A stretch of DNA of 64,000 bases from a virus (lineage: Duplodnaviria > Caudoviricetes), in the IMG/VR virus record IMGVR_UViG_3300042940_001591; one strand, 5' to 3'. Under the pieces are notes generated by a model. That model saw nothing but the letters and a program-made list of their open reading frames with translations, had not been told where the DNA came from and ran no database searches. How positions within the stretch are numbered: position 1 is the first letter of the stretch; every line of letters begins with the position of its first letter. Of this stretch, positions 46,992 to 62,643 are shown piece by piece. The position numbers and the translations under genes are program-made.

Positions 46992-48199
46992 TGTTGGAAA
47001 TTTTACAGAAATACCATACTGATGGTTTGTTACATAAACAAACTCACCCAACTCTTGATTTAACTATTTGGAATTATTCACCAAAAGTTCAGTATGAAAG
47101 ATTATGGGATGAGATTACTTTGCAATGTCGTGGATTGGTAACCAACTCAAAAGGAAAAATTGTTGCAAGACCGTTTAAGAAATTCTTCAACTACGAAGAA
47201 CATAAATCAGAAGACATCCCAAATGAAGATTATGTTGTCTATGAAAAAATGGATGGTTCTTTAGGTATTCTCTTTTATTACGAATACGAATTGAGTGATG
47301 AAAGGAGATACAACATATGGTTTAATAATAATTACGAAACGGGCATGGAAAGGTTTTTTGACCCGAACAACTTACCTGATTATGATAATTCATATTATGA
47401 ACCAACACCAAAGACTAAGGGTGAATGGATAATGGCAACTCGTGGGTCATTCACATCACCACAAGCAATTAAGGGAAAAGAAATTCTTGATAACAAATAT
47501 GATGTAAGTTCTTTAAGTAAAAAAAGAACCTATTTGTTTGAGATTATTTATCCCGAAAATCGTATCGTTGTTAATTATGGTAATGAAGAAAAGTTAGTTC
47601 TTCTTGGTGTTATAGATACCGATAGTGGTGAGGAGTTACCCAATAGTTCAATATTTTTTATGCAAGAACAAGGTTTTGAAGTTGTAACAACGTACAAAAC
47701 TTGGGGCGAAGGATATGACTTATTGAAAGAAGAAATATCTAAAGACAAGGAAGGTTATGTCATTCGTTTCAATAATGGTTTCCGTATGAAAATTAAAGGA
47801 GAAGAATATGTTAGACTTCACAAAATTTTAACCAACGTATCAAATAGAGATATATGGGAATATTTGAAAGATAATAAACCATTTGATGAACTACTTGAAA
47901 AAGTTCCGGACGAATTTAATCAATGGGTTAAAGAAACTGTTCGAGATTTAAGATATGCTTGTTTTCAACTAAGAGAACGTGCAGGTAAATTACATGATGG
48001 TTTTAGATATGGAAAATTTAATGACAGGGGCCCTGAGCCATCTAAAAAAGAATTTGCCGAATTTGTTATGAAACAACAAAAAGTTTTACATGCGATTATG
48101 TTCGCAATGTGGAATGGAAATAATGAAAAAGTCGATGACATAATTTGGAAAATAGTTAAACCAGAATATTCAAAACCATTTAAGAAAGATGAAAACTGA
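46991..48199 (+). CDS. RNA ligase (T4 Rnl1-like)
   Basis: CRGLV, RPFKKFFN, EKMDGSLG (motif I), ATRGSF, FEII, EGYV, KIK. Confidence 0.92.
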   Translation: MLEILQKYHTDGLLHKQTHPTLDLTIWNYSPKVQYERLWDEITLQCRGLVTNSKGKIVARPFKKFFNYEEHKSEDIPNEDYVVYEKMDGSLGILFYYEYELSDERRYNIWFNNNYETGMERFFDPNNLPDYDNSYYEPTPKTKGEWIMATRGSFTSPQAIKGKEILDNKYDVSSLSKKRTYLFEIIYPENRIVVNYGNEEKLVLLGVIDTDSGEELPNSSIFFMQEQGFEVVTTYKTWGEGYDLLKEEISKDKEGYVIRFNNGFRMKIKGEEYVRLHKILTNVSNRDIWEYLKDNKPFDELLEKVPDEFNQWVKETVRDLRYACFQLRERAGKLHDGFRYGKFNDRGPEPSKKEFAEFVMKQQKVLHAIMFAMWNGNNEKVDDIIWKIVKPEYSKPFKKDEN

Positions 48200-48674
48200 G
48201 AAAAAAAGATTATACTTAGACGACGTTAGAACACCAATTGGAACTGATTGGGTTATTATAAGAAATTATGAACATTTTGTTTCTACCATTAGATTATATG
48301 GGTTAGAAAATTTTGATGTTATTTCGTTAGACCATGATTTAGGTGATGAGTCTATGATTGAGTACTATACAAATGTAAAAAATAATTATGTTTTAAATTA
48401 TGACAACATAGTTAATGAAAAAACAGGATATGATTGTTGTAAATTTTTAGTGGCTGAAAGTATGTCCAAAAAGATACCCCTTCCCCAAATTTATGTTCAT
48501 TCCGCAAATCCAATCGGTAGTGCTAATATGATGGGATATATTAATAATTATTTAATGAACTGTGGTTTACCCCAAACCTGTATTAGGGTTAAAATTGAAC
48601 ACACAATAGACGAGCCAATGATACTTTCTCCAGAAGCCAGAAAAGCAAAATGGGATAGAAGTAAGGAAAATTAA
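48189..48674 (+). CDS. Cyclic-phosphate-processing receiver-domain protein
   Basis: LYLDDVRTP, ISLDHDLG, KTGYD, VHSANPIG. Confidence 0.8.
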   Translation: MKTEKKRLYLDDVRTPIGTDWVIIRNYEHFVSTIRLYGLENFDVISLDHDLGDESMIEYYTNVKNNYVLNYDNIVNEKTGYDCCKFLVAESMSKKIPLPQIYVHSANPIGSANMMGYINNYLMNCGLPQTCIRVKIEHTIDEPMILSPEARKAKWDRSKEN

Positions 48675-49113: not shown

Positions 49114-49148
49114 ATCCCCGTTGGTTTTAATCATCGGGGATTTTTTTT
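49114..49148 (+). terminator. Intrinsic terminator
   Basis: atccccg...cggggat followed by T8. Confidence 0.7.
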
Positions 49149-50604
49149 ATAGTACCATTCTTGACCCTATTAAGAAATTACTTAACCAAGGTGAACCTGG
49201 AGATGTGTTTCCACTCAATTTGTAGTTAAAACTAAACCCAAATCGTTTACTCAACTTGTAATCAAACGAACTACCTAATAAGAATCCCATATGTCGATTA
49301 ACGGTGGACGTTCCTGCAACAGTGTTCCAAGATAATGGTGCAAACATTGTAAATATTTGTGGAGACACCGTCAACTTTTTACTATATTGATATGGTTTAG
49401 TCCAAAAAGCGACTACCGATGACGACATGTTATAATCATAGTTATCTTTTTCATTTTTAAGAAATAAATTTATCAATCCTAAATTATAACCAAATACACC
49501 ATGCTTTGGTGTTGGTTTAATATATGTATAACCTAATAAATTCATGTAGTTCCCATTCAAATAAGCAAATGCGGTAGAATATGAGTGTATTGCTTTTAAT
49601 TTACCTTCTGAGAAATCCATCTTAGTGTATCCACCACTAACAATAAATGTTTTTAGGTCACTCATAATAACCGTATTTGCGGAATAACTTTTATCCCCCA
49701 TCAAGGATGATTTAGATACCCCAATAGTGGCCGATTGTAACCATCTACCGTCAGGTGATTCTATTGTTGATAAATCAGAAGATAATAACATAGGATTTGT
49801 TGCGACCGCCTTTTCTTTTTTCTTCTCTTCTTTTTTCTTTTCCTCTTCCTTCTTTTCTTCTTTAGATTCCTCTTTCTTTTCTTCTTTTTTCTCTTCCGAT
49901 TTAGATTCCTCTTTCTTTTCTTCGGATTTACTTTCAGATTTAGATTCTTCTTTTGATTCAGATTTACTTTCGGTTTTTGATTCTGACTTAGTCTCCGATT
50001 TAGTTTCGGTTTTTGTTTCTGTTTTAGTTTCAGAAGATGAGGATGATCCACCACTTGATGACGAACCACTTGATGAAGATGATGAACTTCCACTACTTGG
50101 TGGTGGAGGTGTTGATGAACTACTACTTGTTGGTGGTGGAGTAGTGGGTGGTGGTGTTGACGCGGCGGAACTTGCGGCAGCTGAACTTGCACTTGAACTA
50201 GCAGCAGAACTTGCCGATGATGATGCAGCACTACTTGCCGCACCACTTGCAGCAGAACTAGCGGCTGCAGATGCTGCCGATGCTGCAGCATTACTTGCGG
50301 TTTGTGCAGCCGCATTTGCTACCGTTTGTTGAACAATTGGATTATTAATTACAGGACAAGTTAATGCCTCATATGTTGCTTTAGTTGTAAATAACCAAGT
50401 CTGTACAACTCCCGTTTGTACTTCCATAGGAGAAAATGTTCTTACTTGATTGTAAAAAGACACAGTAGCATTACCATTTATGATGGTTGTTGTTGCTATC
50501 TTTTTTTCACCACTACATTTATCAATAAATGTTTGAGTGTACGTTTGTCCAAAAGATTTACCACAAAAAAACAATATTAGGAGAGAGATAATATATTTTT
50601 TCAT
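49147..50604 (-). CDS. Secreted/outer-membrane protein: signal peptide, Ala/Ser/Pro and Lys/Glu linkers, C-terminal beta-barrel-like domain
   Basis: MKKYIISLLILFFCGKSFG-Q signal; alternating hydrophobic strands FGYNLGLINL, FLLGSSFDYKL, FGFSFNYKL. Confidence 0.75.
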   Translation of the reverse strand: MKKYIISLLILFFCGKSFGQTYTQTFIDKCSGEKKIATTTIINGNATVSFYNQVRTFSPMEVQTGVVQTWLFTTKATYEALTCPVINNPIVQQTVANAAAQTASNAAASAASAAASSAASGAASSAASSSASSAASSSASSAAASSAASTPPPTTPPPTSSSSSTPPPPSSGSSSSSSSGSSSSGGSSSSSETKTETKTETKSETKSESKTESKSESKEESKSESKSEEKKEESKSEEKKEEKKEESKEEKKEEEKKKEEKKKEKAVATNPMLLSSDLSTIESPDGRWLQSATIGVSKSSLMGDKSYSANTVIMSDLKTFIVSGGYTKMDFSEGKLKAIHSYSTAFAYLNGNYMNLLGYTYIKPTPKHGVFGYNLGLINLFLKNEKDNYDYNMSSSVVAFWTKPYQYSKKLTVSPQIFTMFAPLSWNTVAGTSTVNRHMGFLLGSSFDYKLSKRFGFSFNYKLSGNTSPGSPWLSNFLIGSRMVL

Positions 50605-50605
50605 T

Positions 50606-51439
50606 TTAAAAATTGATACCTAAACCAAAGGTACCGTTACGAATTACCGGGTCATAGTCATACTTTATTGTTATATTTTTGAAATCGTGTAATATTCCAA
50701 CTTTAACAGTTGCGAATCTATCTTTATATTTTGGGAAAGTAATATATCCAATATCATCTTTACCTCTCCACTTCACATCTTCCGTCACACTACCAATCAT
50801 AAGGTGAATACCCGTTCTTTTAATCCTCTTACCAACACCAACATAGAAATTTCTTTGTTCTATCAAATCACTTACCATTGGAAAATCGACTTGTGTTATA
50901 TTACCATAAGGAAAGAATGTTGAATTATCTCTTTCAAATGTTGAGTTATATTCAGCAATAAAATATGCTTTAGTCCCTATTGTAAAAAATCCACCAATCT
51001 GATTACCACCTGTTTTCTGAATACCAAAGCTGACGATTGGTCTCTTACCTTTAATGGTGTCCAATTTTCCATTATCATAAACATACACTCTTGCAGGTTG
51101 TCTATAACCCCAATCGTTTAAGTAAAAGCCTGGGTTCCAAAAGTTCCAACCAAATGCAGGTGCTCCCCACATATCCCATCTATTCCATCCCCATCCAAAA
51201 TTATTCATTAACCATGGGTCTCTTACAATTATGTTTGAACCTGGTCTTGTTCTTAGAGGTCTATCATATCCATTTGATGGTGGTTGATTTCTCCAATTAC
51301 TAACATCATTTCTTTGTGGAGTTGGTGGTTGTATTGATGGTGTTGACCTTTGAGGTGTAGGTGGATTACTTCTCCATGATGAGACTTGTCCTAACACGAT
51401 AGTTGGGATAAGTAATAATAATATTAATAACGTTTTCAT
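50606..51439 (-). CDS. Secreted protein with W/G/N-rich N-terminus and C-terminal beta-barrel (BAM-type terminal Phe)
   Basis: MKTLLILLLLIPTIVLG-Q; ends GTFGLGINF. Confidence 0.75.
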   Translation of the reverse strand: MKTLLILLLLIPTIVLGQVSSWRSNPPTPQRSTPSIQPPTPQRNDVSNWRNQPPSNGYDRPLRTRPGSNIIVRDPWLMNNFGWGWNRWDMWGAPAFGWNFWNPGFYLNDWGYRQPARVYVYDNGKLDTIKGKRPIVSFGIQKTGGNQIGGFFTIGTKAYFIAEYNSTFERDNSTFFPYGNITQVDFPMVSDLIEQRNFYVGVGKRIKRTGIHLMIGSVTEDVKWRGKDDIGYITFPKYKDRFATVKVGILHDFKNITIKYDYDPVIRNGTFGLGINF

Positions 51440-51516
51440 ATGGTTATTCTTTTATTATAAATATAAAAAAAGGAGGTTATTACACCTCCTTTTAAATAAT
51501 TCTTAATGTAATTAAA

Positions 51517-52239
51517 CTATTTTGTGAATATTCCTTTTTTAATCATTCTATCAAGGATGTTAGCACATGCAATATCTAAAGCCTTTTTAGTTGCTATGGA
51601 AATTGTTGATTGATTAAATTTTATTGGGTCTACAGTTGCATCAGATAAAAGGGTTAACTCTCTTTTTGTGGTTGCCTCACCTAAACCCGATCCACCAAAT
51701 ACAACACCTGTTTCAGCATCTGTAAATCTAACCTGAAGACCTATACGAGTCACCATATTGTCTTGTATACCATTTTTAAGGTTGATGGTTTCATCTTCCG
51801 ACACCGAGTAATCATAACACTCAATAGTGACAAAATACTTTGCCAAATTTATTTTACCACGACCATCTAATTTATTCTCGGAAATACCAGATTGGGATGC
51901 TTGGAATTGCTTTACCATACGATTCTTAATTTCTGTTTTATCCTCAGTAAATTTGAATCTGTTTAAGTTTTCAAGATATTCCATTGAAATATTAGCAACC
52001 CCCAAACCAACACGTTTTTCTTTTAGTTCAGGATACATTTCATACATCTCATCAGAAATTCCTGCCTTTAATATTTGAATTGGAATTTGTGGACCGTCGT
52101 AATCCATATAATCACTAATATCTCTTTTCTTTTCGAAGTCCGCCTTGTAGTCTTCTGTTTTAGTTTTACCTATTGTTTGTCCGTTAACAACAACAACGCT
52201 TAGTAAAAAAACGCTTAATAATGTTAATAATTTTTTCAT
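51517..52239 (-). CDS. CsgG/HfaB-like secreted protein
   Basis: Signal peptide; GVANISMEYLENLNRFKFTE, AKYFVTIECYDY, IGLQVRFTDAETGVVF, SGLGEA resemble the CsgG/TolB-N fold. Confidence 0.6.
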   Translation of the reverse strand: MKKLLTLLSVFLLSVVVVNGQTIGKTKTEDYKADFEKKRDISDYMDYDGPQIPIQILKAGISDEMYEMYPELKEKRVGLGVANISMEYLENLNRFKFTEDKTEIKNRMVKQFQASQSGISENKLDGRGKINLAKYFVTIECYDYSVSEDETINLKNGIQDNMVTRIGLQVRFTDAETGVVFGGSGLGEATTKRELTLLSDATVDPIKFNQSTISIATKKALDIACANILDRMIKKGIFTK

Positions 52240-52249
52240 ACATTTTATC

Positions 52250-52417
52250 TTAACCCTTCCAATTTTTTGGGTGGGATTTTCTTTTAGGTGTGTTATTTAT
52301 AATTTCTTCTACAACAACAATTTCCGGTTCAGGAATAACTTCCTCAACAACTGAAACAATTTCAGGTTCCGTAATTATTTCTTCAATAACAGTAACAATT
52401 TCATTATTTTCTTCCAT
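52250..52417 (-). CDS. Small acidic repeat protein, 55 aa
   Basis: Not in track: MEENNEIVTVIEEIITEPEIVSVVEEVIPEPEIVVVEEIINNTPKRKSHPKNWKG. Confidence 0.55.
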   Translation of the reverse strand: MEENNEIVTVIEEIITEPEIVSVVEEVIPEPEIVVVEEIINNTPKRKSHPKNWKG

Positions 52418-52477
52418 TTTTAATTAATTTTTTAAATAAATTTTTATTAAAAAGGAGGGTTTTATCCCTCCTTAATA

Positions 52478-52726
52478 TTAACCTTCCATCTCATCTTTCT
52501 TTTTGTGAGAGAACTTATCCAAAGTGTCAGCACCCATTCCAATTCCCGTGATTAACATCACTGCATTCACCAATTCAGGTGACGGGGCAAAATCCGCATG
52601 AGAGAACGAATTTAAAATCATCGTTATACATAGGAATAAAGCACCTATCATTGCTATTACCGGTTTTACCGATATTGAACCTCTTTCATCTTTGAAGAGT
52701 TCGATTACCCATTGTTTAAAATTCAT
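52478..52726 (-). CDS. Small 2-TM membrane protein (holin-like)
   Basis: Two hydrophobic helices, basic C-terminal tail. Confidence 0.6.
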   Translation of the reverse strand: MNFKQWVIELFKDERGSISVKPVIAMIGALFLCITMILNSFSHADFAPSPELVNAVMLITGIGMGADTLDKFSHKKKDEMEG

Positions 52727-52751
52727 TTTTGTCTTGTTTTAATTTTATTTA

Positions 52752-53381
52752 TTATCCTTCCATATGCATTTCTGCATTTTCATCTTTTATTTTACCACAC
52801 TTTAAACATTCCTCGATTCCGTCACCATCCAAGTCACCCCAAACGTGTTCACATTGTCTATGTGCAAAATACATATCAATTTTACCATCACCATCAAAAT
52901 CTATACCATCCATTGTACCATCACCATCTTCATCAACTTCAACACCAGTTCTTGGTTGAACGGTTGGTACTTGTTCAAACGTATCATTTACCTTTTCTAT
53001 TTTTGAGTTTTCAATAGCGGTTTGAAACTCCTCTGGTATGATTGGAGTGTTGTTTGGTGGAGTTGGTGGTAAATCGGCGGTATTGCTTAATGATGTGCCA
53101 TCTTCTTCATCCATTTTCTGAACTAACATCTTATCCTTATCGGTATCACTAAACCAATAGTCAATTATTTTACCATAAGAACCGATGAAAGCTCCTAACA
53201 ATAATAGAAGAAGTTCTTTCCATTCTCCTTCTATTGCTGATTTATTTAATATAGCAAAGAACATTCCTCCTATAATAAACATGAATCCACCCAATACCAA
53301 TGCGGTGATGTACCATCTTCTGGCCATCATATTACTTAATAAATCTTTAAAACCACTTGGTGGTTGTTTGTTTTCTGCCAT
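52752..53381 (-). CDS. 2-TM membrane protein with DxDxDG Ca-binding loops and Cys knuckle
   Basis: DEDGDGTMD, DFDGDGKID, DLDGDGIE; C-x-H..CLKC. Confidence 0.7.
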   Translation of the reverse strand: MAENKQPPSGFKDLLSNMMARRWYITALVLGGFMFIIGGMFFAILNKSAIEGEWKELLLLLLGAFIGSYGKIIDYWFSDTDKDKMLVQKMDEEDGTSLSNTADLPPTPPNNTPIIPEEFQTAIENSKIEKVNDTFEQVPTVQPRTGVEVDEDGDGTMDGIDFDGDGKIDMYFAHRQCEHVWGDLDGDGIEECLKCGKIKDENAEMHMEG

Positions 53382-53383
53382 TT

Positions 53384-53629
53384 TTATTTATTTTTTTTTA
53401 AAAGAGATTTTATATCACAATAACAGGAATTAGCACCGTGAGCTATTGCCATTAGTATCCACATTAAAGTCATTTCACCCAAACCCAAAATGGTTTTAGG
53501 AGTATCACTACTTAATGTGTTTGGTGAACAATGTGTTATTGATTGTATTGGTTCGTAAAAATAGATCGCTAATCCTAAAAAAATTATAGAAACCCAATAT
53601 CTTAGTATGTAGTATTTTATATTATTCAT
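53384..53629 (-). CDS. Small membrane protein (start set at MNNIKYY)
   Basis: Two hydrophobic segments. Confidence 0.55.
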   Translation of the reverse strand: MNNIKYYILRYWVSIIFLGLAIYFYEPIQSITHCSPNTLSSDTPKTILGLGEMTLMWILMAIAHGANSCYCDIKSLLKKNK

Positions 53630-53643
53630 ATTATTATTATTTT

Positions 53644-53799
53644 TTATCTTTTCCAAGACCATCCCTTTTTTCTACCTCTTATTAATAAATAACTACAACC
53701 CCCAATAAAAAATGTTAAAAACATCGATTGGGAATTAAATACAAACATAGCTATCATACATAATACGATTACCGCTATAAAACTTAATCCCTGTTCCAT
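53644..53799 (-). CDS. Small 2-TM membrane protein, 51 aa
   Basis: Not in track: MEQGLSFIAVIVLCMIAMFVFNSQSMFLTFFIGGCSYLLIRGRKKGWSWKR. Confidence 0.55.
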   Translation of the reverse strand: MEQGLSFIAVIVLCMIAMFVFNSQSMFLTFFIGGCSYLLIRGRKKGWSWKR

Positions 53800-53808
53800 T
53801 TTAAATTT

Positions 53809-54120
53809 TTACCATTTAGGAGCCTCTTCTTTAAACTCATCACCTTCTTTCTTTTTTACAGGAGCTGGTTTTTCTTTAACTGTTTCTTTTTCTTTAATAA
53901 TTACAGTCTTACCACCACCCGCCGATTGTTGTTGAGTTTGTGAATTTGTAATGTTTATTACTGGTGCCGCTTGTTGTGGTGCCGGTTCTGCTTTATCACC
54001 ACCACCTAAAAGTGTTGATAACCATACTCCCGCCGCGGTCACTAATGTTCCTGCAACCCCAATTATTGTCTTTTTTAAACCCGACCAAGTTCCTTCTGAT
54101 TGTTCTACTTCTTCTGACAT
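53809..54120 (-). CDS. Single-TM membrane-anchored protein
   Basis: IIGVAGTLVTAAGVWLSTLL helix then a Q/P/K-rich tail. Confidence 0.7.
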   Translation of the reverse strand: MSEEVEQSEGTWSGLKKTIIGVAGTLVTAAGVWLSTLLGGGDKAEPAPQQAAPVINITNSQTQQQSAGGGKTVIIKEKETVKEKPAPVKKKEGDEFKEEAPKW

Positions 54121-54158
54121 TGTATTTGTTTTTAGTTTTTTAGTTTATTTTATTAATA

Positions 54159-54878
54159 TTACGCACCCAATGCTTTACTGAATCCATTAGGACAAGTTCT
54201 AGTACATATCAAATCTGCTATAATAGGTGCTACTGCAGTTCCGATTGCAATACCAACTCCAGCAGGGGTAGCCCATAATGCCGCCGAATCTAAACTATGA
54301 TAGATACAATTTGAACATACGTTTCTTAATAATTCTGAATCAATATTTTCACCAACACCAGGTATTGATAAAAATCCATCTGCCACTATTACACCCATTG
54401 CCGTTGATACCGCCATTTTAGCTGCCGTATCTGCAATGTAAAGAACAGGCGTAGCCATCAACGATAATGTAGTTGAAGTTGCCGCTCCAGCAGGTTGCGC
54501 TGGTGTAAATGCCGCAACAACACCGGCAGAGATTAGTGCGGTTATTGCTATATTACAAGCGTTTTCGTCCGCCCAGTTATATGCCATCACAGCACCATCT
54601 TTTACCACTTCATATCCCTCTTTAACACCAGATTCTATTTGATTTCCAACATTAATAAGTACCGGCATAACTTCTTCTTCCCATTCTCTACCTACCACAT
54701 CTTCAACTCTATGATTTATTTCAGGATGGTCGTGAATGTATCTTATTGCTTTATTGGTTAATCCCCACGTATCACACGCCGAACAAGGTCCATCTCCTCC
54801 GAATCCATACCATCTTACATAGTTATCACCACAATCCGAGCGATGATAAACAACTCCGTCTCCGTTTCTGTCTGCCAT
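54159..54878 (-). CDS. Cys-containing protein with long Ala/Gly hydrophobic C-terminal helices
   Basis: No signal peptide; IAITALISAGVVAAF, AAKMAVSTAMGVIV, AGVGIAIGTAVAPII. Confidence 0.7.
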   Translation of the reverse strand: MADRNGDGVVYHRSDCGDNYVRWYGFGGDGPCSACDTWGLTNKAIRYIHDHPEINHRVEDVVGREWEEEVMPVLINVGNQIESGVKEGYEVVKDGAVMAYNWADENACNIAITALISAGVVAAFTPAQPAGAATSTTLSLMATPVLYIADTAAKMAVSTAMGVIVADGFLSIPGVGENIDSELLRNVCSNCIYHSLDSAALWATPAGVGIAIGTAVAPIIADLICTRTCPNGFSKALGA

Positions 54879-54895
54879 AATTTTTGTTTTTTAAT

Positions 54896-55276
54896 TTATT
54901 GTATTTTATTGAAATCTGTTATTCCTAATTGTTTATTGTTAGAATCGAATAACCCTATTCTATATGCTGATGATGGTAACGCGTTAGTGTATACCTTTAA
55001 AAGATTATCACCGGCAACTACATTCATCGTTTCTTTAGATACTACTCTGTTTGAAATGTCGAATATTTTAACCGTCACTGAACCCGCAGTTTCGGTTTTA
55101 ACATTCATTGCCACCTCAGAGGTTACAAAAACAGTTTGTAATTTAATACCGACTGAATTTGTCATTTTAAGATCTTCCGATATCGATTGAGGGGCTGGTA
55201 AAATGTCATCTTTGTAACATCCTGTTAAAATTGTGGATAATAACACCATTGAGAGAATTTTTTTCATTTTTGTCAT
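54896..55276 (-). CDS. Lipoprotein consisting of a T9SS C-terminal-domain-like fold
   Basis: LTGC lipobox; GSVTVKIFDISNRVV..GDNLLKVYTNALPSSAYRIGL. Confidence 0.65.
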   Translation of the reverse strand: MTKMKKILSMVLLSTILTGCYKDDILPAPQSISEDLKMTNSVGIKLQTVFVTSEVAMNVKTETAGSVTVKIFDISNRVVSKETMNVVAGDNLLKVYTNALPSSAYRIGLFDSNNKQLGITDFNKIQ

Positions 55277-55278
55277 TT

Positions 55279-55623
55279 TTAATTTACTATTATTTTTGTT
55301 TTTTTCAATTCATTTCCATCCACACCTTTAAGTACTAAATATAAATATCCTTTAGGTAGGGAATTGGTATAAATCTTCTTCACATTTTCACCATTTTGTC
55401 CAATAAATTTTTCTCGACTAATAACTTGATTTGTTGTCACATCTATTAAGGTCAATGTATACGTACCTGCGGAGGGTAAATCAAAATAGATAGATTGTCC
55501 GTTTGTTACCTTACTTTCTGTTACATTAAAGATATTATCTTTCGCAACCACCTCGGGCATCGGTAATTCGGGTTTAACACATCCCGTTAATAAAATAAAT
55601 GATATTAATATTAATTTTTTCAT
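55279..55623 (-). CDS. Lipoprotein consisting of a T9SS C-terminal-domain-like fold
   Basis: LTGC lipobox; AGTYTLTLIDVTTNQVI..IYTNSLPKGYLYLVLKG..KKTKIIVN. Confidence 0.7.
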   Translation of the reverse strand: MKKLILISFILLTGCVKPELPMPEVVAKDNIFNVTESKVTNGQSIYFDLPSAGTYTLTLIDVTTNQVISREKFIGQNGENVKKIYTNSLPKGYLYLVLKGVDGNELKKTKIIVN

Positions 55624-56516
55624 TAAAATTGAAAGTTTGTTCCTATCATAAACATTATTGGATTACTTTTTTTATAACCAACTGATTCTGATAATTTATC
55701 CCAAGTTGTGTTATATCTGATATTAGTATTTAACACAAATCTTTTAGTTATTTTCCAATCAATAGATGTTCCATAATATAAGTCCAAATTGAAATCATCT
55801 ATATATGTCAAATCCGATTCAGTACCATCTTTAAATACTTTATATACATCACTCATAGCAAATATTTGTGGTGAAATGTTTACCCTCTTCGTTTTCAATG
55901 TATACGTGTACATCACCATACCTCTATAAGTAAGTTCGGATGATGATGGCATTTGTGGATATATTAAATCTTTAAAATCACCATTTTCATCTACCGTATA
56001 TTTTCCTTCCCATTCACCCTGATAAGTTCCCCAAAATGATTTTGACGCAGTTAAACTATAACCAAATGTTCCAAACTTTTTAGTTCTGAATACATCTATA
56101 AATGATAATGTAATATCTTTTTGGAAATCAAAATCGGTTGAAAAAAATGTTTGTATTGTTGTAGTTCTCTTTTCGGTATTTTTACTAAGTCCATAACCCA
56201 CACCATAATAATTCCATATAGGGTTTATTGATGTTGCGAATGTATGTCCCCATTGTCCATTCATAGATGATTTATGATACCCCAAATTAAGAGTAGTAGA
56301 TACCTGTCTTCCAATTATACCAACTGATAAGTTTGAAGATGAAAGTACATCTTTTGAAAAATTAACATATGATTGCAATATACCCACATCGTTCCAATCA
56401 TCACTTTCTCCAAATAATTCTTTTGGTGATAGTTGTAATGTATCGGGTGCAGGTATTTGTGCGTTTGACACAAATCCAATTAAAACTAACGATATGATTA
56501 ATAATAGTTTTTTCAT
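55623..56516 (-). CDS. Outer-membrane beta-barrel protein
   Basis: Signal peptide (VSNA-Q); amphipathic strands; ends MIGTNFQF. Confidence 0.78.
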   Translation of the reverse strand: MKKLLLIISLVLIGFVSNAQIPAPDTLQLSPKELFGESDDWNDVGILQSYVNFSKDVLSSSNLSVGIIGRQVSTTLNLGYHKSSMNGQWGHTFATSINPIWNYYGVGYGLSKNTEKRTTTIQTFFSTDFDFQKDITLSFIDVFRTKKFGTFGYSLTASKSFWGTYQGEWEGKYTVDENGDFKDLIYPQMPSSSELTYRGMVMYTYTLKTKRVNISPQIFAMSDVYKVFKDGTESDLTYIDDFNLDLYYGTSIDWKITKRFVLNTNIRYNTTWDKLSESVGYKKSNPIMFMIGTNFQF

Positions 56517-58813
56517 TAGTTCATTTTTACTTTTAATTGTGTTCCATTTTTATTAACTGCATCGGTTGTTGATATTGAAGTTAAACCCAAAGTACCACTC
56601 AGTCCTATTAATGGTAAAAATGTTATTTTATATTCTGTTGTTTTATCCAATAATGTTGAACCATCGGTAATCAATGAACCTAATGTTATTGATGAACCTC
56701 TATTAGTTCCAAAATTGGTAGGAGTTCCCTTTGTGGTGAATTCTACTTTTTCAAATTTCAATGATGTGTTATCATAGTTCAAGTTAAATTGAGTACCAAC
56801 TACCTCTTGTTGTAATGGGTCTACCGAAATCGTTACTACTAATTTACCACCAATGTTTTCACCCATCAAATATGCATTTATTTCGTTTGGTACTGAATTG
56901 GTATTTAAACTCATAGTTCTAATTGAATTACTTGTAACACCACTTACACTTTGTTGTGCCGAATGTGATAGATTTACATCACCTACCCAAGTTGCGTTCA
57001 CATTGTAAGTATTATTAAGTGTACTCGTATTCAAACTAAAAGGGAATAAACTTCTGGTAGAGTTAAATTGTGTACTCCAATTAGATTTTGTTACCGCATC
57101 ATATTCTGACTTACTATATAACTTAATCAAATAGGTTAATACCGAGTATTGTGTTAGTGGTGCGGCTCCTGTCAAATGTTGTAATAATTTGTATGTATCT
57201 GCTTCATTAAATATACCATTACCATCCACATCTGCGTTCATATATTGAATCCCCGATGTAAATTCCAACCCACTCTCATTTCCAAATATACCACCATTTG
57301 ATAATTCTTTAAATGCGATAAACACATCCGATACCGTTACAATACTATTATATAGAGTGTTTAAATCAGTTTGGTTGGTATATGATAAATCGATTCCGTG
57401 TTGTTTATAACTTTGAATTGGTGAGAATGTAAATTCTGCCTTTGTTCCGTACCACCCATCTTGTAATCGTAATTGAGATTGAAATGTGGATGAAGTTATT
57501 TTGGTTGTCAAATTACCTGGCATTATATACGTTTTCCAAAATCCACTTACATTATTAATGGTAACCGGTCCATCATATATGTCAAATAATTTAACCGATG
57601 TTACATTGTTTGGGGATACTCCCGTTCCATCAAATTCTCTTTCATCTATTAACAATTGGTGTCCACCTAAATTTGCATCATATGGATTTATTATTGCCCA
57701 TTCAACTTGTCCGGCGGTTGTAGTTGCTTTAACCCCAACACCACTTACCTTTGCGGTATCTAAATCATTTGTAATATCAACTTTACCTAATCCACTTATT
57801 GCTCTTGATGTGTTGGTTGTTGTACTCCATACATTATTTACATATCTGTTTGCCTTTGCTGAGAATTTGGTCTCATCCACGTTACTACCAAAATCAAAAT
57901 TAAATCTAGCAGTTAGAACTTCACCATTTGAGTGAGTTACTGAATTGGTATAAAACTCTGTGAACGTTGCATCATCAGGATTAGTCCAAGTTCCAAATTC
58001 AACCACATAAGGATTTGCAAAATGGTTTGGTAAATCATTCCATTGAGAACCATTCCATTTGGTTACTGCATAATCTTCGTTACCACTATCGTTTGGTTCA
58101 CCAGGTGCCCAGTTATTATATTGACCGGGAATATTTCCGTTTAGTTGTCCGTTATTTATTTTAATTAAAGTTCCAGCTTCAGGACCTGCATCAATTGTCC
58201 ATCTAGCTTCACTTGCAGCATCGGATAATGCGAACCATATATTTGTTTGAGGTACATTGTTAAAAATAAAAGCATCTTCATCCGCTGAAGTAATTGTTAC
58301 TAAATATCCTTGTTGTCCTTTGAATGTTTGTTGTGATGATAGTGTTTTAGCATTTGTATAAGTTGCTCCGGTTGATATTGGTCTATAAAAGTGTCCATTT
58401 GTTCCGTTATAAAAATATCCTGTTGGATTGACTGTTGCAGCCACGGATAATGCAACATTACCTCTTACCGAACCTGTATTTACTTTTAGAGATGCTAAAG
58501 CAGTATTGATATTCGCCATTGTTCCCGTTACCACCAAACGAGTTTTATTACCGCTTAAAGTAAATCCACTTGCTGCGGTTAAACCTGTTGTTGTAGTTAG
58601 GTTAAATGTTGTACCCGTTGGTGGATTAACTAAACTAATTGATGCTAATAAAGTTGCGGTTGAACCGAACCCACTCAATACAAATCCACTTGCATCTTGT
58701 CCAGATGTAGATGGTAAAAATGATTTAGAGTCCGGAGCAGATACACTCTGTCCGAACCCTAAAAATGAAATTAGTAAAAAACATATTACTAATAGTTTCT
58801 TCATATTACTCAA
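56516..58813 (-). CDS. Secreted adhesin: C-type lectin domain + dockerin-like + cohesin-like
   Basis: NGHFY..YLVTITSADE..IWFALSD..NWAPGEPND..WNDL (CTLD with EPN/WND); ADVDGNGIFNEADTYKLLQHL; GTQFNLNYDNTSLKF. Confidence 0.75.
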   Translation of the reverse strand: MSNMKKLLVICFLLISFLGFGQSVSAPDSKSFLPSTSGQDASGFVLSGFGSTATLLASISLVNPPTGTTFNLTTTTGLTAASGFTLSGNKTRLVVTGTMANINTALASLKVNTGSVRGNVALSVAATVNPTGYFYNGTNGHFYRPISTGATYTNAKTLSSQQTFKGQQGYLVTITSADEDAFIFNNVPQTNIWFALSDAASEARWTIDAGPEAGTLIKINNGQLNGNIPGQYNNWAPGEPNDSGNEDYAVTKWNGSQWNDLPNHFANPYVVEFGTWTNPDDATFTEFYTNSVTHSNGEVLTARFNFDFGSNVDETKFSAKANRYVNNVWSTTTNTSRAISGLGKVDITNDLDTAKVSGVGVKATTTAGQVEWAIINPYDANLGGHQLLIDEREFDGTGVSPNNVTSVKLFDIYDGPVTINNVSGFWKTYIMPGNLTTKITSSTFQSQLRLQDGWYGTKAEFTFSPIQSYKQHGIDLSYTNQTDLNTLYNSIVTVSDVFIAFKELSNGGIFGNESGLEFTSGIQYMNADVDGNGIFNEADTYKLLQHLTGAAPLTQYSVLTYLIKLYSKSEYDAVTKSNWSTQFNSTRSLFPFSLNTSTLNNTYNVNATWVGDVNLSHSAQQSVSGVTSNSIRTMSLNTNSVPNEINAYLMGENIGGKLVVTISVDPLQQEVVGTQFNLNYDNTSLKFEKVEFTTKGTPTNFGTNRGSSITLGSLITDGSTLLDKTTEYKITFLPLIGLSGTLGLTSISTTDAVNKNGTQLKVKMN

Positions 58814-60458
58814 TGGTTAAATCAACTTTATTTCCTTTCGCGTCAACAGCATCCGATAAAACAAAGTAGAATAAACCCGCAGTATTTGTTAAAGTAGTTT
58901 TTGGTGTGAATATTAATTTATATGGAGTACCTACTTTAATTCTCGCACTTTTCAATTGGTCAATAGAACCAAACGTTAATCTACCATCTTTATGTGTAGA
59001 AAAGTTTGTGATAGTTGAACCTGAATCAAATATGATATTATCCAAAGTTAATTTAGACTCATCATAATTCATTATTACTTGTAAACCTGCTAATTCTGTC
59101 TTTGTTAATGTAGTGGTTAATACAACCTTACCACCCTCTAATGTTGATGTAATACCTAATGTTGCCTTTTCCACTGCTAAAGTTTGATAAGCCATCGGGG
59201 CAGTACTCATAGATTTTATAGAACTAGTTGCTTTATCATTTACAGAATTTGTAAATTGACCTGCAGTTATTTTAGTTGCAATTACCGCTGGGTCGGATGA
59301 ATGTGACCAGTTTAAGTCTCCACCCCACGCAAATACAGCATAAACCTCTTTTGTAGGTGAATCAATTAATACTCTATTCTTAACCACACCATCTAACCAA
59401 CTTTGATTCAATAAACCACTATACCATCTTACTGATGTTGATGTGTTTGTTGGAATCATTGCGTTTGAGTCAGTATTTTGTCCCATTACATGTGCAAATA
59501 ATGCGTATGAATCTCCTTCACCAAACGCGTTTTGGTTATTGGTTACCTTACCAACTTTCTTTTCCAATGCTGGTAGAGTAAAGAAGTTCGCGGTACCACT
59601 AATATCAGTTTGTGAGTGTCCTAAGAATGCTTTATAGGCATCTGATACGGTTACAATGTTGTTCATCCAAGTTTTTTGAAACGCGGGTCCAACGAATACC
59701 CCAACTGAATCACCCACTTTAACTTGTGTTGTGAATAACGCTTCACCACTTGCATCCAATGGTAATTGTGCAATAGGTTGTTGTGACCAATCAATTTCAC
59801 CACTACCATTTGATTTCAATTTCATCAATTGAACATTATGGTCGGTAATAGTATATCCTTGTGGATATAATACTTTTACTTTGAATTGTGACGTGTTACC
59901 AACAACATTACTTACAGATGACCAACCACCACCAAAGATAGTCCCAACATTTGCACCGGCAGTGTCGGTACCCGTTGCCAAATCTATTTTGAAAATATTG
60001 TTATATGTATTTTGGTCTTTTAAAACATATTTTTGAGTCGCAATTAAACCACTAATAGATGCATCAGCTCTTTGAACGGTTAATTGTCCAACATTCCAAT
60101 CAGCATTTACCGCATAACCCCAAGGAGTTAAACCATATTGAAGATCTAAATTATTATCACTCGTAGTGCTGTTTGGTGTAAACTTATAGTTACTCCATCC
60201 AGTGTAAAATGTTTGGGCAGACGTGCCTTGGTTAAATGCGGTTGACACATATGATAATGCCTTATTATTAAATTGATATCTAAACCAAAGATAACGAGGG
60301 TTTTTAATTACAGTACCTTTTGTTAAGTTATATTTAACCGTTAGTGTGTCTCCTACTTTTAATCCAGTAGTTGGTGTTATTGATTGACTAATTGTTAATT
60401 GACCGAATGATGTAAAGGCGATCAATAAAAAAAAGCTAAGAGAGAGTAGTTTTTTCAT
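58806..60458 (-). CDS. Secreted cohesin-like / dockerin-like protein, paralog of the adjacent adhesin
   Basis: Signal peptide; VGDTLTVKYNL..FRYQFNNKALSY; IVTVSDAYKAF; GDLNWSHS; GLQVIMNYDESKLTL. Confidence 0.7.
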   Translation of the reverse strand: MKKLLSLSFFLLIAFTSFGQLTISQSITPTTGLKVGDTLTVKYNLTKGTVIKNPRYLWFRYQFNNKALSYVSTAFNQGTSAQTFYTGWSNYKFTPNSTTSDNNLDLQYGLTPWGYAVNADWNVGQLTVQRADASISGLIATQKYVLKDQNTYNNIFKIDLATGTDTAGANVGTIFGGGWSSVSNVVGNTSQFKVKVLYPQGYTITDHNVQLMKLKSNGSGEIDWSQQPIAQLPLDASGEALFTTQVKVGDSVGVFVGPAFQKTWMNNIVTVSDAYKAFLGHSQTDISGTANFFTLPALEKKVGKVTNNQNAFGEGDSYALFAHVMGQNTDSNAMIPTNTSTSVRWYSGLLNQSWLDGVVKNRVLIDSPTKEVYAVFAWGGDLNWSHSSDPAVIATKITAGQFTNSVNDKATSSIKSMSTAPMAYQTLAVEKATLGITSTLEGGKVVLTTTLTKTELAGLQVIMNYDESKLTLDNIIFDSGSTITNFSTHKDGRLTFGSIDQLKSARIKVGTPYKLIFTPKTTLTNTAGLFYFVLSDAVDAKGNKVDLTIE

Positions 60459-60473
60459 TTTATTATTTTTTTT

Positions 60474-61124
60474 TTATTTTTTATCCATTAATTTATTTAT
60501 TAATTTTTCACTAGCCTTTTTAAGTGCATTACTTAAAGATGTTTGGTTAAACGACCCCCCTTCATCGACAATAAGCGTCGACATAGAAACTTCAGATGAT
60601 GATTCCTCAACAACAAATTCTTTTTCTTTTTTACCGTCTTTTGTTAATGTTCCCTTCAATCTAATAACCACTTCCTCCTGATTAGAATGGAAAACAGATA
60701 TGTTCTTCTTTGTTGTAAGAACATCTAAATAAACAATTTGTACTTTTAATTTGTAAGGAGATGATGCCGATAAATCGTAGCCTTTTTCTTGTAAAAACTC
60801 TTCTAATATGTTTTTAACCCCGAATGCTAAATTTCTGTTACCAGCCAATTTACCAATTTTAACCTCATTGGTTACACTCTCAACCCAAATATGGTCTTCA
60901 GCATTATACCAAATGTTTTCTGGAGAGTTTTTGAATGTTCCATCAATTCTCCACGAAATCCAATTAACGATATTTCGTTGCAACTCATGTTTGCCGGAAA
61001 ACTCTAAATAAACAAAGAATAATTGAAAACAAAGGGCAAAGACTATCCAAAATACTACTAATCTTAAAAATACCCAAAATAATATATTGCCTAAATTAAG
61101 TGATAATGTTCTAATTCTTTCCAT
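60474..61124 (-). CDS. Membrane-anchored protein with CsgG/TolB-N-like domain
   Basis: N-terminal TM; LAFGVKNILEEFLQ..FNQTSLSNALKKA parallels GLGVANISMEYLE..FNQSTISIATKKA of 51517-52239. Confidence 0.55.
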   Translation of the reverse strand: MERIRTLSLNLGNILFWVFLRLVVFWIVFALCFQLFFVYLEFSGKHELQRNIVNWISWRIDGTFKNSPENIWYNAEDHIWVESVTNEVKIGKLAGNRNLAFGVKNILEEFLQEKGYDLSASSPYKLKVQIVYLDVLTTKKNISVFHSNQEEVVIRLKGTLTKDGKKEKEFVVEESSSEVSMSTLIVDEGGSFNQTSLSNALKKASEKLINKLMDKK

Positions 61125-61200
61125 ATGAAATTTTTTAAAGTACTCCTGGCAATTTTCATATGAAAAGAGTCAGGAGAGAGATAATTTTTATTTGTCCCTT

Positions 61201-61207
61201 ATAAATA
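61201..61207 (-). promoter_or_regulatory. TATTTAT motif (putative phage-sigma promoter) heading the envelope-protein cluster
   Basis: The same motif precedes many structural genes on the sense strand (e.g. 646, 2667, 4666, 11891, 25462, 32412). Confidence 0.55.
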
Positions 61208-61476: not shown

Positions 61477-61551
61477 AGGGTAATGGACTAATGGCTAAGT
61501 CACTTGCTTTGGGAGCAAGGCATCATGGAGGTTCGAGTCCTCTTTACCCTA
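61477..61551 (+). tRNA. tRNA-Pro(TGG)
   Basis: AGGGTAA/TTACCCT acceptor; CTTGC-TTTGGGA-GCAAG; GGAGG-TTCGAGT-CCTCT. Confidence 0.9.
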
Positions 61552-61556
61552 CAAAC

Positions 61557-61628
61557 GCTGATTTAGCTCAGAGGTAGAGCACGAAGCTGTTAACTTCGGG
61601 GTCCAGATATCGTAATTCTGAATCAGCG
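61557..61628 (+). tRNA. tRNA-Asn(GTT), atypical T-loop
   Basis: GCTGATT/AATCAGC; CGAAG-CTGTTAA-CTTCG; T-arm CAGAT-ATCGTAA-TTCTG. Confidence 0.85.
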
Positions 61629-61634
61629 CAAAAT

Positions 61635-61706
61635 GCGTGTGTAGTTCAATTGGTAGAATTTCGGTCTCCAAAACCGAAGATGAAGGTTCGAGTCCTTACA
61701 TGCGTG
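61635..61706 (+). tRNA. tRNA-Trp(CCA)
   Basis: GTTC-AATTGGTA-GAAT D-arm; TCGGT-CTCCAAA-ACCGA; AAGG-TTCGAGT-CCTT. Confidence 0.9.
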
Positions 61707-61713
61707 CAACAAT

Positions 61714-61793
61714 ACCCGAGTGGTGGAATGGTATACACAGCGGTCTTAGAAACCGTGTCGAAAGGCGTGTCGGTTCGAGTCCGACCTTGGGTA
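61714..61793 (+). tRNA. tRNA-Leu(TAG)
   Basis: ACCCGAG/CTTGGGT; GCGGT-CTTAGAA-ACCGT; long variable arm; GTCGG-TTCGAGT-CCGAC. Confidence 0.92.
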
Positions 61794-61798
61794 CATAT

Positions 61799-61869
61799 TG
61801 TCCTTTAGTATAGTGGTAGTACAGATGGTTTTGGTCCATCTAGCTGTGGTTCGAGCCCACGAGGGACAA
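61799..61869 (+). tRNA. tRNA-Gln(TTG)
   Basis: TGTCCTT/AGGGACA; GATGG-TTTTGGT-CCATC; TGTGG-TTCGAGC-CCACG. Confidence 0.9.
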
Positions 61870-61874
61870 CATAT

Positions 61875-61947
61875 TGCGGGGAGGAGGGTACCCGACCAGT
61901 CTCATAAGCTGTGTCTTTTCCGGTTTCGACTACCGGCCCCGCAACCA
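61875..61947 (+). tRNA. tRNA-Met(CAT), initiator-like acceptor, aberrant D-arm, encoded CCA
   Basis: TGCGGGG/CCCCGCA-A-CCA; CAGT-CTCATAA-GCTG; CCGGT-TTCGACT-ACCGG. Confidence 0.75.
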
Positions 61948-61964
61948 AAAAGATTTTAAAATAA

Positions 61965-61996
61965 TTTGGAATATCTGAAATTATTTATTATCTTTG
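61965..61996 (+). promoter_or_regulatory. Bacteroidota sigma-A-type promoter, internal to the array
   Basis: TTTG (61965-68) - N20 - TATCTTTG (61989-96). Confidence 0.75.
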
Positions 61997-62003
61997 TTAA
62001 ACA

Positions 62004-62089
62004 ATGGTTGATTGGGATTTAACGGGGCTAGCGAATAGCGAGAAACGCCAATCATAAAAACAGATGTCCACACCCCCATCTTCTGTTTT
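62004..62089 (+). other. Structured leader: 17-aa uORF (62004-62057) plus hairpin, before tRNA-Thr
   Basis: MVDWDLTGLANSEKRQS*; TGATTGG/CCAATCA stem; AAAACAGATG...CATCTTCTGTTTT hairpin. Confidence 0.4.
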
Positions 62090-62097
62090 CCATAGTA

Positions 62098-62171
62098 GCC
62101 CGAATAGCTCAGCTGGCCAGAGCAACTGATTTGTAATCAGTAGGTCCTCAGTTCGAATCTGAGTTTGGGCT
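62098..62171 (+). tRNA. tRNA-Thr(TGT)
   Basis: GCCCGAA/TTTGGGC; ACTGA-TTTGTAA-TCAGT; CTCAG-TTCGAAT-CTGAG. Confidence 0.93.
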
Positions 62172-62173
62172 CA

Positions 62174-62349
62174 ACAGGTGACGACGGTGGTGTAACCCCA
62201 CTGTCTATGAATCCCAAAAGATCCGTCTGACTCGCGAGGTAGGGCGGTGAGGGTAGAGTTACTATAAGTCGGGAATAATTACCCCAATACGAAAATGTAA
62301 CCGCAGACTATGTCTGTTATGATGTACATAGATGGTACGAAAAACCTGT
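62174..62349 (+). ncRNA. Candidate ~175-nt multi-stem ncRNA
   Basis: Closing ACAGGT/ACCTGT; GACGGTGG/CCACTGTC; CCGTCT/GGGCGG; GTTAC/GTAAC; GCAGAC/GTCTGT; GC-rich, no ORF. Confidence 0.5.
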
Positions 62350-62361
62350 AACTTTTTGAAA

Positions 62362-62426
62362 CTAACTCAACGAGGACTTTGTCAACCAGAGCAGTGACTC
62401 GGATGGTGCAACTTAAGGTGAGTTAG
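62362..62426 (+). ncRNA. Candidate ~65-nt structured RNA
   Basis: CTAACTCA/TGAGTTAG closing stem; CGAG/CTCG and GTCA/TGAC inner stems. Confidence 0.35.
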
Positions 62427-62437
62427 AATCAATTTTT

Positions 62438-62522: not shown

Positions 62523-62526
62523 CAAG

Positions 62527-62610: not shown

Positions 62611-62643
62611 TTTAATATATAATATTTTTTTTATATTAAGATA

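Follow-up and report, generated by a model that had tools for sequence, protein, structure and literature searches.

The stretch of DNA analysed here is a 64,000-nucleotide (nt) sequence (hereafter referred to as the window) from the IMG/VR virus record IMGVR_UViG_3300042940_001591 (Duplodnaviria; Caudoviricetes), and our subject is a block of genes at positions 49147–61207, most of whose products carry signals for the envelope of the host cell. The block consists of 16 minus-strand open reading frames (ORFs) arranged head to tail from 61124 to 49147, with gaps of 0–77 nt and several stop/start overlaps, which link the lectin gene with the barrel and lipoprotein genes. From the upstream end, the ORFs are as follows (aa, amino acids; TM, transmembrane).

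60474–61124, minus strand: 216-aa membrane-anchored YajG-like protein, the first block gene in this phage
58806–60458, minus strand: 550-aa secreted protein (signal ending in FG|Q) with a C-terminal dockerin-like plus cohesin-like cassette
56516–58804, minus strand: 765-aa ORF (762 aa from the MKK at codon 4, the real start), secreted C-type lectin protein
55623–56516, minus strand: 297-aa predicted 12-strand outer-membrane β-barrel, from AlphaFold2 (AF2) modelling and structural search; its start overlaps the stop of the lectin gene
55279–55623, minus strand: 114-aa lipoprotein (LTGC), a putative small β-sandwich with the partial export signal C-V-K-P-E
54896–55276, minus strand: 126-aa lipoprotein (LTGC), a paralogue of the 114-aa protein with the export signal C-Y-K-D-D-I
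54159–54878, minus strand: 239-aa Cys-rich, Ala/Gly-rich hydrophobic protein, a variable insert and not a core member
53809–54120, minus strand: 103-aa type-II membrane protein, a core member whose periplasmic tail is rich in Pro/Gln and Lys/Glu
53644–53799, minus strand: 51-aa small membrane protein with a basic C terminus
53384–53662, minus strand: small ORF
52752–53381, minus strand: 209-aa membrane protein with an acidic C-terminal part containing DxDGDG-type repeats
52478–52726, minus strand: 82-aa two-TM protein with a charged C terminus and a hairpin 3′ of the gene
52250–52417, minus strand: small ORF
51517–52239, minus strand: 240-aa secreted protein with a predicted CsgG-superfamily fold, a core member
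50606–51439, minus strand: 277-aa secreted protein, Pro/Trp-rich in its N-terminal half and β-rich in its C-terminal half
49147–50604, minus strand: 485-aa stalked barrel protein with a signal, an N-terminal domain, a stalk and a C-terminal barrel

A single crude hydrophobicity test, run on all genes of the window, detected an export or membrane signal in 14 of the 16 block ORFs, as compared with 1 of the 47 other genes (Fisher p 4.6e-11). Six of these proteins (485, 277, 240, 297, 765 and 550 aa) have signals of the Sec/signal peptidase I (SPase I) type, two (114 and 126 aa) have the lipobox LTGC, and six (216, 239, 103, 51, 209 and 82 aa) have one or two hydrophobic or TM segments. Thus, the initial annotation, which had described 16 co-oriented genes, about 14 of them with signal peptides, lipoboxes or TM helices and several encoding small membrane proteins, is upheld in these points. 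In all six Sec-type proteins, the residue that follows the predicted cleavage is Gln (FG|Q, NA|Q, LG|Q or NG|Q), which argues for real export and for a Bacteroidota host. Such a Gln is the 'Q-rule' of Bacteroidetes SPase I substrates (PMC5837995) and was noted earlier for Porphyromonas phage proteins (PMC10367356). The small ORFs at 52250–52417 and 53384–53662 have no counterpart among 80 related loci, to which all presence counts and median identities below refer, and may not be real genes. PHROGs searches with all 16 block proteins returned nothing informative, and NCBIfam searches nothing above noise.

We modelled the 297-aa protein with AF2 from a 16-row alignment (predicted local distance difference test (pLDDT) score, 70). 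The model has a closed sheet of about 12 strands, with the N-terminal ~45 residues poorly defined. In a VIA all-against-representatives structural search, 12-strand barrels ranked first with Z scores of 17–18, including the NalP translocator (17.9), KdgM (17.9), Hbp (17.4), AIDA-I (17.3), a COG4313 channel (17.1) and FapF (16.9), and Foldseek concurs. These searches with the predicted model confirm the protein as a 12-strand outer-membrane barrel, an assignment that describes its fold and not its function. The protein has no match to the Pfam Autotransporter family (PF03797) at E ≤ 0.1, and a profile of its family yielded nothing significant among the Protein Data Bank (PDB) sequences. In an exhaustive HMMER search of 1.8 billion representatives, the family comprised only about seven full-length clusters, and no relative from a cellular organism was recovered. 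The position of the gene after a large gene raised the possibility of a PorP/SprF-type partner of type IX secretion system (T9SS) cargo, which we rejected for want of a Pfam match and because 12-strand barrels are the closest folds, with PorV at only Z 12.2.

The 485-aa protein combines a signal with a conserved ~75-aa domain containing two Cys residues, a ~170-aa low-complexity stalk (successively Ala/Ser-, Pro/Thr/Ser- and Lys/Glu-rich) and a C-terminal barrel. Its last 220 residues are homologous to the 297-aa barrel (hhalign of families A1 and A4: probability 98.5%, E 2e-15), whereas the length of its stalk differs among relatives. Despite this autotransporter-like layout, it has no Pfam match. 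The family is present in at least 58 of the related loci and in the contigs L087, L088 and L095; in L087 and L088 the gene immediately precedes the barrel gene, and gp018 of phage vB_FspM_immuto (hereafter referred to as immuto) is assigned to it by its N-terminal motif, size and position. Two loci (L064, 10373–11137; L074, 2486–3250) have an extra 254-aa stand-alone barrel directly after the 297-aa gene, a paralogue about 25% identical to the C-terminal domain of the 485-aa protein. For the 277-aa protein, the sole pointer to a barrel is a protein language model (PLM) lead to the OMP_b-brl families (0.89). The 277-aa family and the 297-aa barrel align by hhalign in their signal peptides alone, and the 277-aa family profile gave nothing significant among the PDB sequences. 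The protein is thus only possibly a small barrel. Two of the three barrels proposed in the initial annotation are therefore sustained (the 297-aa protein by Z 17–18 and the 485-aa C-terminal domain by the 98.5% hhalign probability), whereas the third is left with the language-model lead alone; the terminal Phe cited there as a signal of the β-barrel assembly machinery type is not conserved in the 277-aa family, most of whose members end in ...NNK.

The 240-aa protein was modelled with a pLDDT of 73, and the closest structures in the VIA search were the pre-pore and membrane forms of CsgG (six entries; Z 11.0–11.6, root-mean-square deviation 3.8–4.4 Å over 155–177 residues), followed by Cj1090c (Z 10.2), PelC (9.3), LptE and FlgT (~8) and TraT (6.3). 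CsgG entries were also the top Foldseek matches, and PLM features placed the protein among CsgG/LpoB clusters (0.94). The 240-aa profile found nothing significant among the PDB sequences, and among genome contigs it matched only two, both apparently phage DNA within metagenome-assembled genome (MAG) bins rather than cellular homologues. No match to the CsgF, CsgE or CsgA families was seen among the block proteins in Pfam searches. The 216-aa protein has a hydrophobic segment at residues 14–41, which forms an N-terminal membrane anchor, and a periplasmic YajG-like domain. PF03923 (YajG-like) was matched by 13 of 13 members of its family (best E 7e-6), with the window protein scoring 22.8 bits against a cut-off of 25; its profile, too, had no significant match among the PDB sequences. 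A sequence relationship between the 240- and 216-aa proteins was considered and rejected (hhalign probability 16%). Accordingly, of the two CsgG/TolB-N-like proteins originally proposed, the 240-aa protein stands at the level of the fold (Z 11.6), whereas the 216-aa protein shows no sequence relation to it and its PF03923 matches lie near or below the threshold.

The 765- and 550-aa proteins are paralogues whose last ~300 residues share a dockerin-like segment, a W-GD-N-SHS motif and a cohesin-like domain. In the 765-aa ORF, a Thr/Ser/Gly-rich N-terminal region is followed by the lectin domain (~165–270), the dockerin-like segment (~490–550) and the cohesin-like domain (~640–765). The lectin domain matches Lectin_C (PF00059) with E 2e-5 and 25.7 bits, above the cut-off of 22.6. 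In the C-type lectin family, the EPN, E and WND residues form the calcium/sugar site. The corresponding residues (EPN 239–241, E246 and WND 258–260) are invariant in 84 of 84 homologues (53–100% identity), and the 765-aa lectin therefore probably still binds sugar. The description of two paralogous cohesin/dockerin-like secreted proteins, one with a C-type lectin, holds for the paralogy and the lectin; the cohesin and dockerin matches are recurrent but sub-threshold, as detailed below.

Among the two lipoproteins, the C-Y-K-D-D of the 126-aa protein exactly matches the Bacteroidota lipoprotein export signal C-X-K-(D/E)2-X, the optimal form of which sends Capnocytophaga lipoproteins to the cell surface (PMC5080379), and the Lys at +3 is nearly invariant in the family. 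Sub-threshold similarity to DUF3244 was found in 9 of 20 family members, and the family profile had no significant match among the PDB sequences. The 239-aa protein contains eight Cys residues, six within the N-terminal 108 residues and two near the C terminus, and long Ala/Gly-rich hydrophobic stretches. Its gene is missing at this place in G001, the nearest relative of the window, and occurs in ~24–30 of the 80 loci at varying positions (in L006, directly upstream of the barrel gene), thereby behaving as a mobile insert. A weak PHROG match of this protein is annotated 'tail fiber protein/lysozyme'. The 103-aa protein has homologues in L092, L087, L095 and immuto (gp016), the 51-aa protein has one in L092, and the N-terminal TM part of the 209-aa protein is kept in distant relatives.

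The gene set is conserved well beyond the window. A query with the 297-aa protein retrieved 109 confirmed viral contigs with 75–95% identity, and the majority of the block genes occur in most of the 80 loci, with median identities of 88% (297 aa), 85% (240 aa), 77% (209 aa), 76% (765 aa) and 40% (277 aa). In five contigs containing both genes, the barrel is 84–90% identical to that of the window and the major capsid protein 78–85%; the barrel is therefore as conserved as the capsid protein. The block lies within contigs of 126–334 kb with phage genes on either side, and megablast of the block against GenBank phages found no match. In L092, with a barrel of 40% identity, the order of the large protein, the barrel, the two lipoproteins and the 103-, 51- and 209-aa proteins is preserved. 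L087 (barrel identity 28%) and L095 contain a cohesin protein, 103-, 209-, 240- and 485-like proteins and a barrel in a different order. L095 is CAIWBA010000291.1, a 254-kb contig binned with a Bacteroidetes MAG, and L094 is a 2.7-kb phage contig in a 'Thiobacillus' MAG bin; both bins probably contain contaminating phage DNA or derive from infected cells. The cultured phage immuto (160 kb; host, Flavobacterium sp. LMO8) has a compact form of the module (gp013–gp019), comprising a C-type lectin (gp013), gp014, a cohesin protein with a T9SS sorting domain (gp015), a 103-like protein (gp016), a protein 54% identical to the 240-aa protein (gp017), a 485-like protein (gp018) and a weakly 216-like protein (gp019). 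The core set is thus kept at 28–57% identity in L087, L095 and immuto.

The remainder of the window identifies its source as a very large T4-like phage. Besides a family-B DNA polymerase and a ClpB-like ATPase, it encodes the following features.

29423–31177, minus strand: Gp23-type major capsid protein (584 aa)
34661–36496: T4-type portal
36550–38325: T4-type large terminase
61477–63929: ten tRNA genes

The Gp23 model covers mainly residues 317–568 of the major capsid protein; compared with T4 gp23, the N-terminal half of this protein seems to be a large extension or insertion. Related IMG/VR contigs reach 297–334 kb. G001 has 54% of its sampled words in common with the window and is 97% identical to it over 49147–53402. 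The DNA carrying the 297-aa barrel gene comes from lake-water metagenomes. The probable host is a freshwater Flavobacterium-type bacterium (Bacteroidota). Small shares of the barrel gene were found in six metatranscriptome runs, a result that is not evidence about expression either way.

The initial annotation had also read TATTTAT motifs at 61201, ~53683 and ~51457 as a sign of phage-sigma control. The word is not enriched across the window (49 observed, 48 expected). On the coding strand within 90 nt upstream, it precedes 22 of 63 gene starts, as compared with 3.4 in shuffles (maximum 10), and the longer form TATTTATA precedes 16 genes, as compared with 1.5 in shuffles. Genes with the upstream element include those for the portal, the terminase and other head proteins. 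The copies at 61201 and 51457 fit this upstream pattern, whereas the third (at 53685) lies inside a coding region and is doubtful. The elements in and around the block are as follows.

61201–61207, minus strand: TATTTAT(A) element, 77–83 nt upstream of the first block gene
~52447–52472: terminator-like hairpin after the 82-aa gene
51493–51468, minus strand: terminator-like hairpin, then TATTTATA at 51463–51457, 24 nt upstream of the 277-aa gene

The copy at 61201–61207 is kept in relatives that have the same upstream region. A terminator-like hairpin also follows the 485-aa gene, and because hairpins lie after the 82- and 485-aa genes and before the 277-aa gene, the block is probably divided into three transcription units. 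Many copies of the element are only 11 nt before the ATG (for example, at the portal and terminase genes), and so it may not be a simple −10 box; it could be a start-site element or a phage promoter, perhaps one that gives rise to leaderless transcripts. Judging from this pattern, the block is probably co-regulated with the structural genes and expressed late. Copies of TATTTATA occur at, for example, 36501–36507, 38330–38336 and 61201–61207, upstream of about a quarter to a third of the genes, and the word is the reverse complement of the T4 late promoter word TATAAATA.

The block is therefore a conserved, envelope-directed phage module with defined folds. We assign a probability of about 0.5 to the reading that it re-dresses the envelope of the infected cell with sugar-binding proteins anchored by barrels and lipoproteins, with adhesion or receptor masking as the pay-off. 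The module would use the Sec, lipoprotein and barrel-assembly pathways of the host to load the envelope, probably alongside expression of the late genes. The barrels and lipoproteins would sit in the outer membrane, and the lectin/cohesin proteins would associate with one another and with these anchors, so that the infected cell or its debris would gain a calcium-dependent sugar-binding coat. The most likely outcome would be a late change in stickiness: the infected cell would adhere to particles or to sister cells, or its phage receptor would be masked, sparing progeny and rival phages from being lost on it. In relatives, a T9SS-tagged cohesin would provide the route to the surface; this route is not visible in the present phage.

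Several observations weigh against this reading. No T9SS sorting domain (PF18962/TIGR04183) was found in the 765- or 550-aa protein or in 17 cassette members, and these two proteins may stay in the periplasm, because they have a Sec signal only and no T9SS tag. By comparison, the cohesin proteins of immuto (gp015; sorting domain, 44.8 bits), L087 (631 aa) and L095 (642 aa) contain Cohesin and T9SS type-A sorting domains above the Pfam and NCBIfam cut-offs. Cohesin (PF00963) was matched by 13 of the 17 cassette members, with a best E of 4e-6 and all below the Pfam cut-off (765-aa protein, 22.4 bits; cut-off, 24.1), and Dockerin_1 (PF00404) by 4 of 17, again all below; the cassette profile gave a marginal cohesin match among the PDB sequences (E 0.012). 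Complex prediction docked the dockerin-like onto the cohesin-like part of the 765-aa protein with a score of 0.53 (best control, 0.02), which gives weak support for docking. The mark that it passed was attained by 58 of the 80 solved complexes and by 2 of the 110 mismatched pairs, but a pass at 0.60 or below is wrong more often than right unless the pairing was likely beforehand. The partner pLDDT was 46–48, and at least 77% of the contacts agreed between runs. Any such contact may be intramolecular, both segments being on one chain. The lipoproteins had been described as essentially T9SS C-terminal domains (CTDs), and their lipoboxes are real, but the CTD likeness is sub-threshold: at E ≤ 0.05, Por_Secre_tail was matched by 7 of 20 family members (best E, 8e-4), none of which reached the cut-off. 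The 240-aa protein is likewise an uncertain envelope pore. Pfam CsgG (PF03783) had no match at E ≤ 0.05 for it or any of 13 family members, its signal in this phage is a plain SPase I signal (...NG|Q) with no lipobox (the L087 homologue is a lipoprotein), and its model has long strands at 135–196 with polar or charged hairpin tips and no visible membrane hairpins. On these grounds, the protein is read as a periplasmic member of the CsgG/PelC/LptE fold group, and it may be a ring or plug rather than a channel. Finally, one barrel homologue (in L089) lies in an unrelated gene context, and an endolysin adjoins the module in some relatives, as described below.

The same evidence bears on a more ambitious version of the coat, in which the module would be self-contained, a CsgG-fold ring and 12-strand barrels moving and anchoring a self-docking, lectin-tipped cohesin–dockerin scaffold for 'sibling capture' or receptor coating. 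The initial annotation had gone this far in proposing a single surface appendage with its own export channel, anchor and glycan-binding tip, a step that the evidence does not support; in particular, the plain Sec signal and polar hairpin tips of the 240-aa protein give no support to the CsgG-fold protein or a barrel as an export channel. The two purposes that it suggested, adhesion or aggregation of infected cells and receptor masking for superinfection exclusion, are likewise putative. We consider this version doubtful. The main rival, which the initial annotation had missed and which we regard as a serious though less likely alternative, is an extended lysis or envelope-integrity module, in which the membrane proteins, the CsgG-fold protein, the lipoproteins and the barrels would govern the timing and manner of failure of the three envelope layers, or hold the envelope through a long infection, and the periplasmic lectin would bind the GlcNAc (N-acetylglucosamine)-containing cell wall. 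EPN-type lectins can bind GlcNAc, the block encodes several small one- or two-TM proteins with charged tails, and the lack of a visible route past the outer membrane for the large proteins also fits. In about 10 of the 80 close relatives, the gene immediately upstream of the 216-aa gene, in the same orientation, encodes an endolysin (PG_binding_1 plus GH19-like; for example, L062, 4493–5320), and L087 and L095 have an endolysin gene adjacent to the core set. For the CsgG/CsgF of phage Melnitz, involvement in the timing of lysis has been proposed (PMC9004378). However, no endolysin was found within the 64-kb window or next to the block in most relatives, and that of immuto is 8 kb distant, behind tRNA genes. 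PHROGs searches with the block proteins gave no holin or spanin family matches beyond a signal-peptide match, the lipoproteins lack spanin features and one bears a surface-export signal, and the T9SS-tagged cohesins of the relatives point to the cell surface.

Among the known functions of phage envelope proteins, superinfection exclusion is the most frequent, and the block could encode proteins that block receptors or DNA entry in the manner of T5 Llp, T4 Imm/Sp, lambda Lom/Bor-type proteins or plasmid TraT. The envelope targeting of the proteins, a lectin that could cover a glycan receptor and the presence of the TraT exclusion lipoprotein in the fold family of the 240-aa protein, albeit at a lower Z (6.3), are consistent with this idea; nevertheless, we think it unlikely, since exclusion genes are usually single, early and variable, whereas the present module has about 12 genes, a core as conserved as the capsid protein and an upstream element common to structural genes. 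That the block is no system at all, but a collection of unrelated accessory genes that happen to be exported, would accord with its three likely transcription units separated by terminator-like hairpins, with the moving or missing 239-aa gene and with the lone barrel homologue in L089. Against this stand the co-travel of the same six or seven families across 28–57% identity, in varied orders and in a cultured phage, the start/stop overlaps among the lectin, barrel and lipoprotein genes, and the strong conservation of the core members, and we judge such a collection to be quite improbable. It is scarcely credible that the block is a misassembled host fragment or encodes virion proteins. A host fragment, which the initial annotation had raised as a possible objection, is contradicted by the G+C content (28–37% across the window, with no shift at the block), by the phage genes on both sides in 126–334-kb contigs, and by the small number of barrel clusters and lack of a cellular relative among the 1.8 billion representatives, and the Sec and lipoprotein signals are incompatible with cytoplasmic virion assembly.

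Partial precedents exist for the module. T4-like pelagimyophages (HTVC008M group) and the methylophage Melnitz encode CsgG/CsgF of unknown purpose, for which aggregation ('sibling capture'), a pore and lysis timing have been raised (PMC7029224, PMC9004378). They resemble the present phage in being aquatic T4-like myophages that encode a CsgG-type protein with neighbours of unknown function. However, their CsgG and CsgF are recognizable by sequence, whereas the 240-aa protein is recognizable by its fold only and no CsgF was found among the block proteins; the module also adds the barrels, lipoproteins and lectin/cohesin/dockerin proteins, and its host phylum is Bacteroidota. In a survey of 1,303 huge phages, Yuan & Chen counted 1,603 outer-membrane barrels (bioRxiv 10.64898/2026.10.24.761521). 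These are likewise large phages, many from freshwater, with barrels of 6–22 strands, sometimes several per genome, near envelope-related genes; the survey makes no mention of CsgG, lectin, cohesin or autotransporter-like proteins (bioRxiv 10.64898/2026.10.24.761521). Most of its proteins cluster with host proteins, in contrast to the 297-aa barrel family, which has no detectable cellular homologue. The initial annotation's statement that no such phage system had been described therefore needs qualification, given the published csgG/csgF clusters and huge-phage barrels, although we found no description of this module composition in the literature.

Comparison with known secretion systems reveals similar partial likenesses. 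The CsgG channel (type VIII secretion) is the best structural match of the 240-aa protein, which differs from it in having no family match, no lipobox in this phage and no visible amphipathic membrane hairpins. Classical autotransporters (type Va) and FapF have a 12-strand C-terminal barrel in common with the module, and the 485-aa protein has an N-terminal domain and linker before its barrel; its linker, however, is a long disordered low-complexity stalk rather than a β-helix passenger, the 297-aa protein is almost without a passenger, and neither resemblance is accompanied by a PF03797 match. As for T9SS type-A cargo and cohesin–dockerin scaffolds, the cohesins of relatives bear Por_Secre_tail above the cut-offs, whereas the large proteins of the window have no sorting domain and CTD likeness is weak and confined to the two free-standing lipoproteins. 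T5 Llp, lambda Lom/Bor, T4 Imm/Sp and plasmid TraT are likewise host-envelope proteins made by phages or plasmids, but they are encoded by single genes with a known exclusion or serum-resistance role, and not by a dozen genes conserved as a set.

Phage envelope proteins are normally single genes for exclusion or lysis, whereas here a dozen exported proteins travel together in a very abundant clade of lake and sea phages, and a core as conserved as the capsid protein means that the module must matter to the phage. If it builds a sugar-binding coat, infected Flavobacteria would aggregate, sink and adsorb further phages differently, which bears on the flow of carbon following algal blooms. Should it serve lysis or envelope integrity, it would give a first glimpse of the way in which large phages break through the Bacteroidota envelope or keep it intact, where spanins are poorly known. 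An export/display system with a lectin scaffold would represent a type of virus-made surface structure that is new for bacterial cells. The cultured pair of immuto and Flavobacterium sp. LMO8, in which the core genes are present, makes either answer testable.

Two further regions of the window lie outside the block. The plus-strand genes at 43875–48674 encode a two-ring AAA+ chaperone of the ClpB type and, after it, an ATPase resembling P-loop kinases, an RNA ligase of the T4 Rnl1 type and a cyclic-phosphate-processing receiver domain protein, which together look like an RNA-repair set beside a disaggregase. Within the tRNA array, a 161-aa ORF on the plus strand (62962–63447) has a signal-peptide-like segment from an internal MKK start and no family matches.

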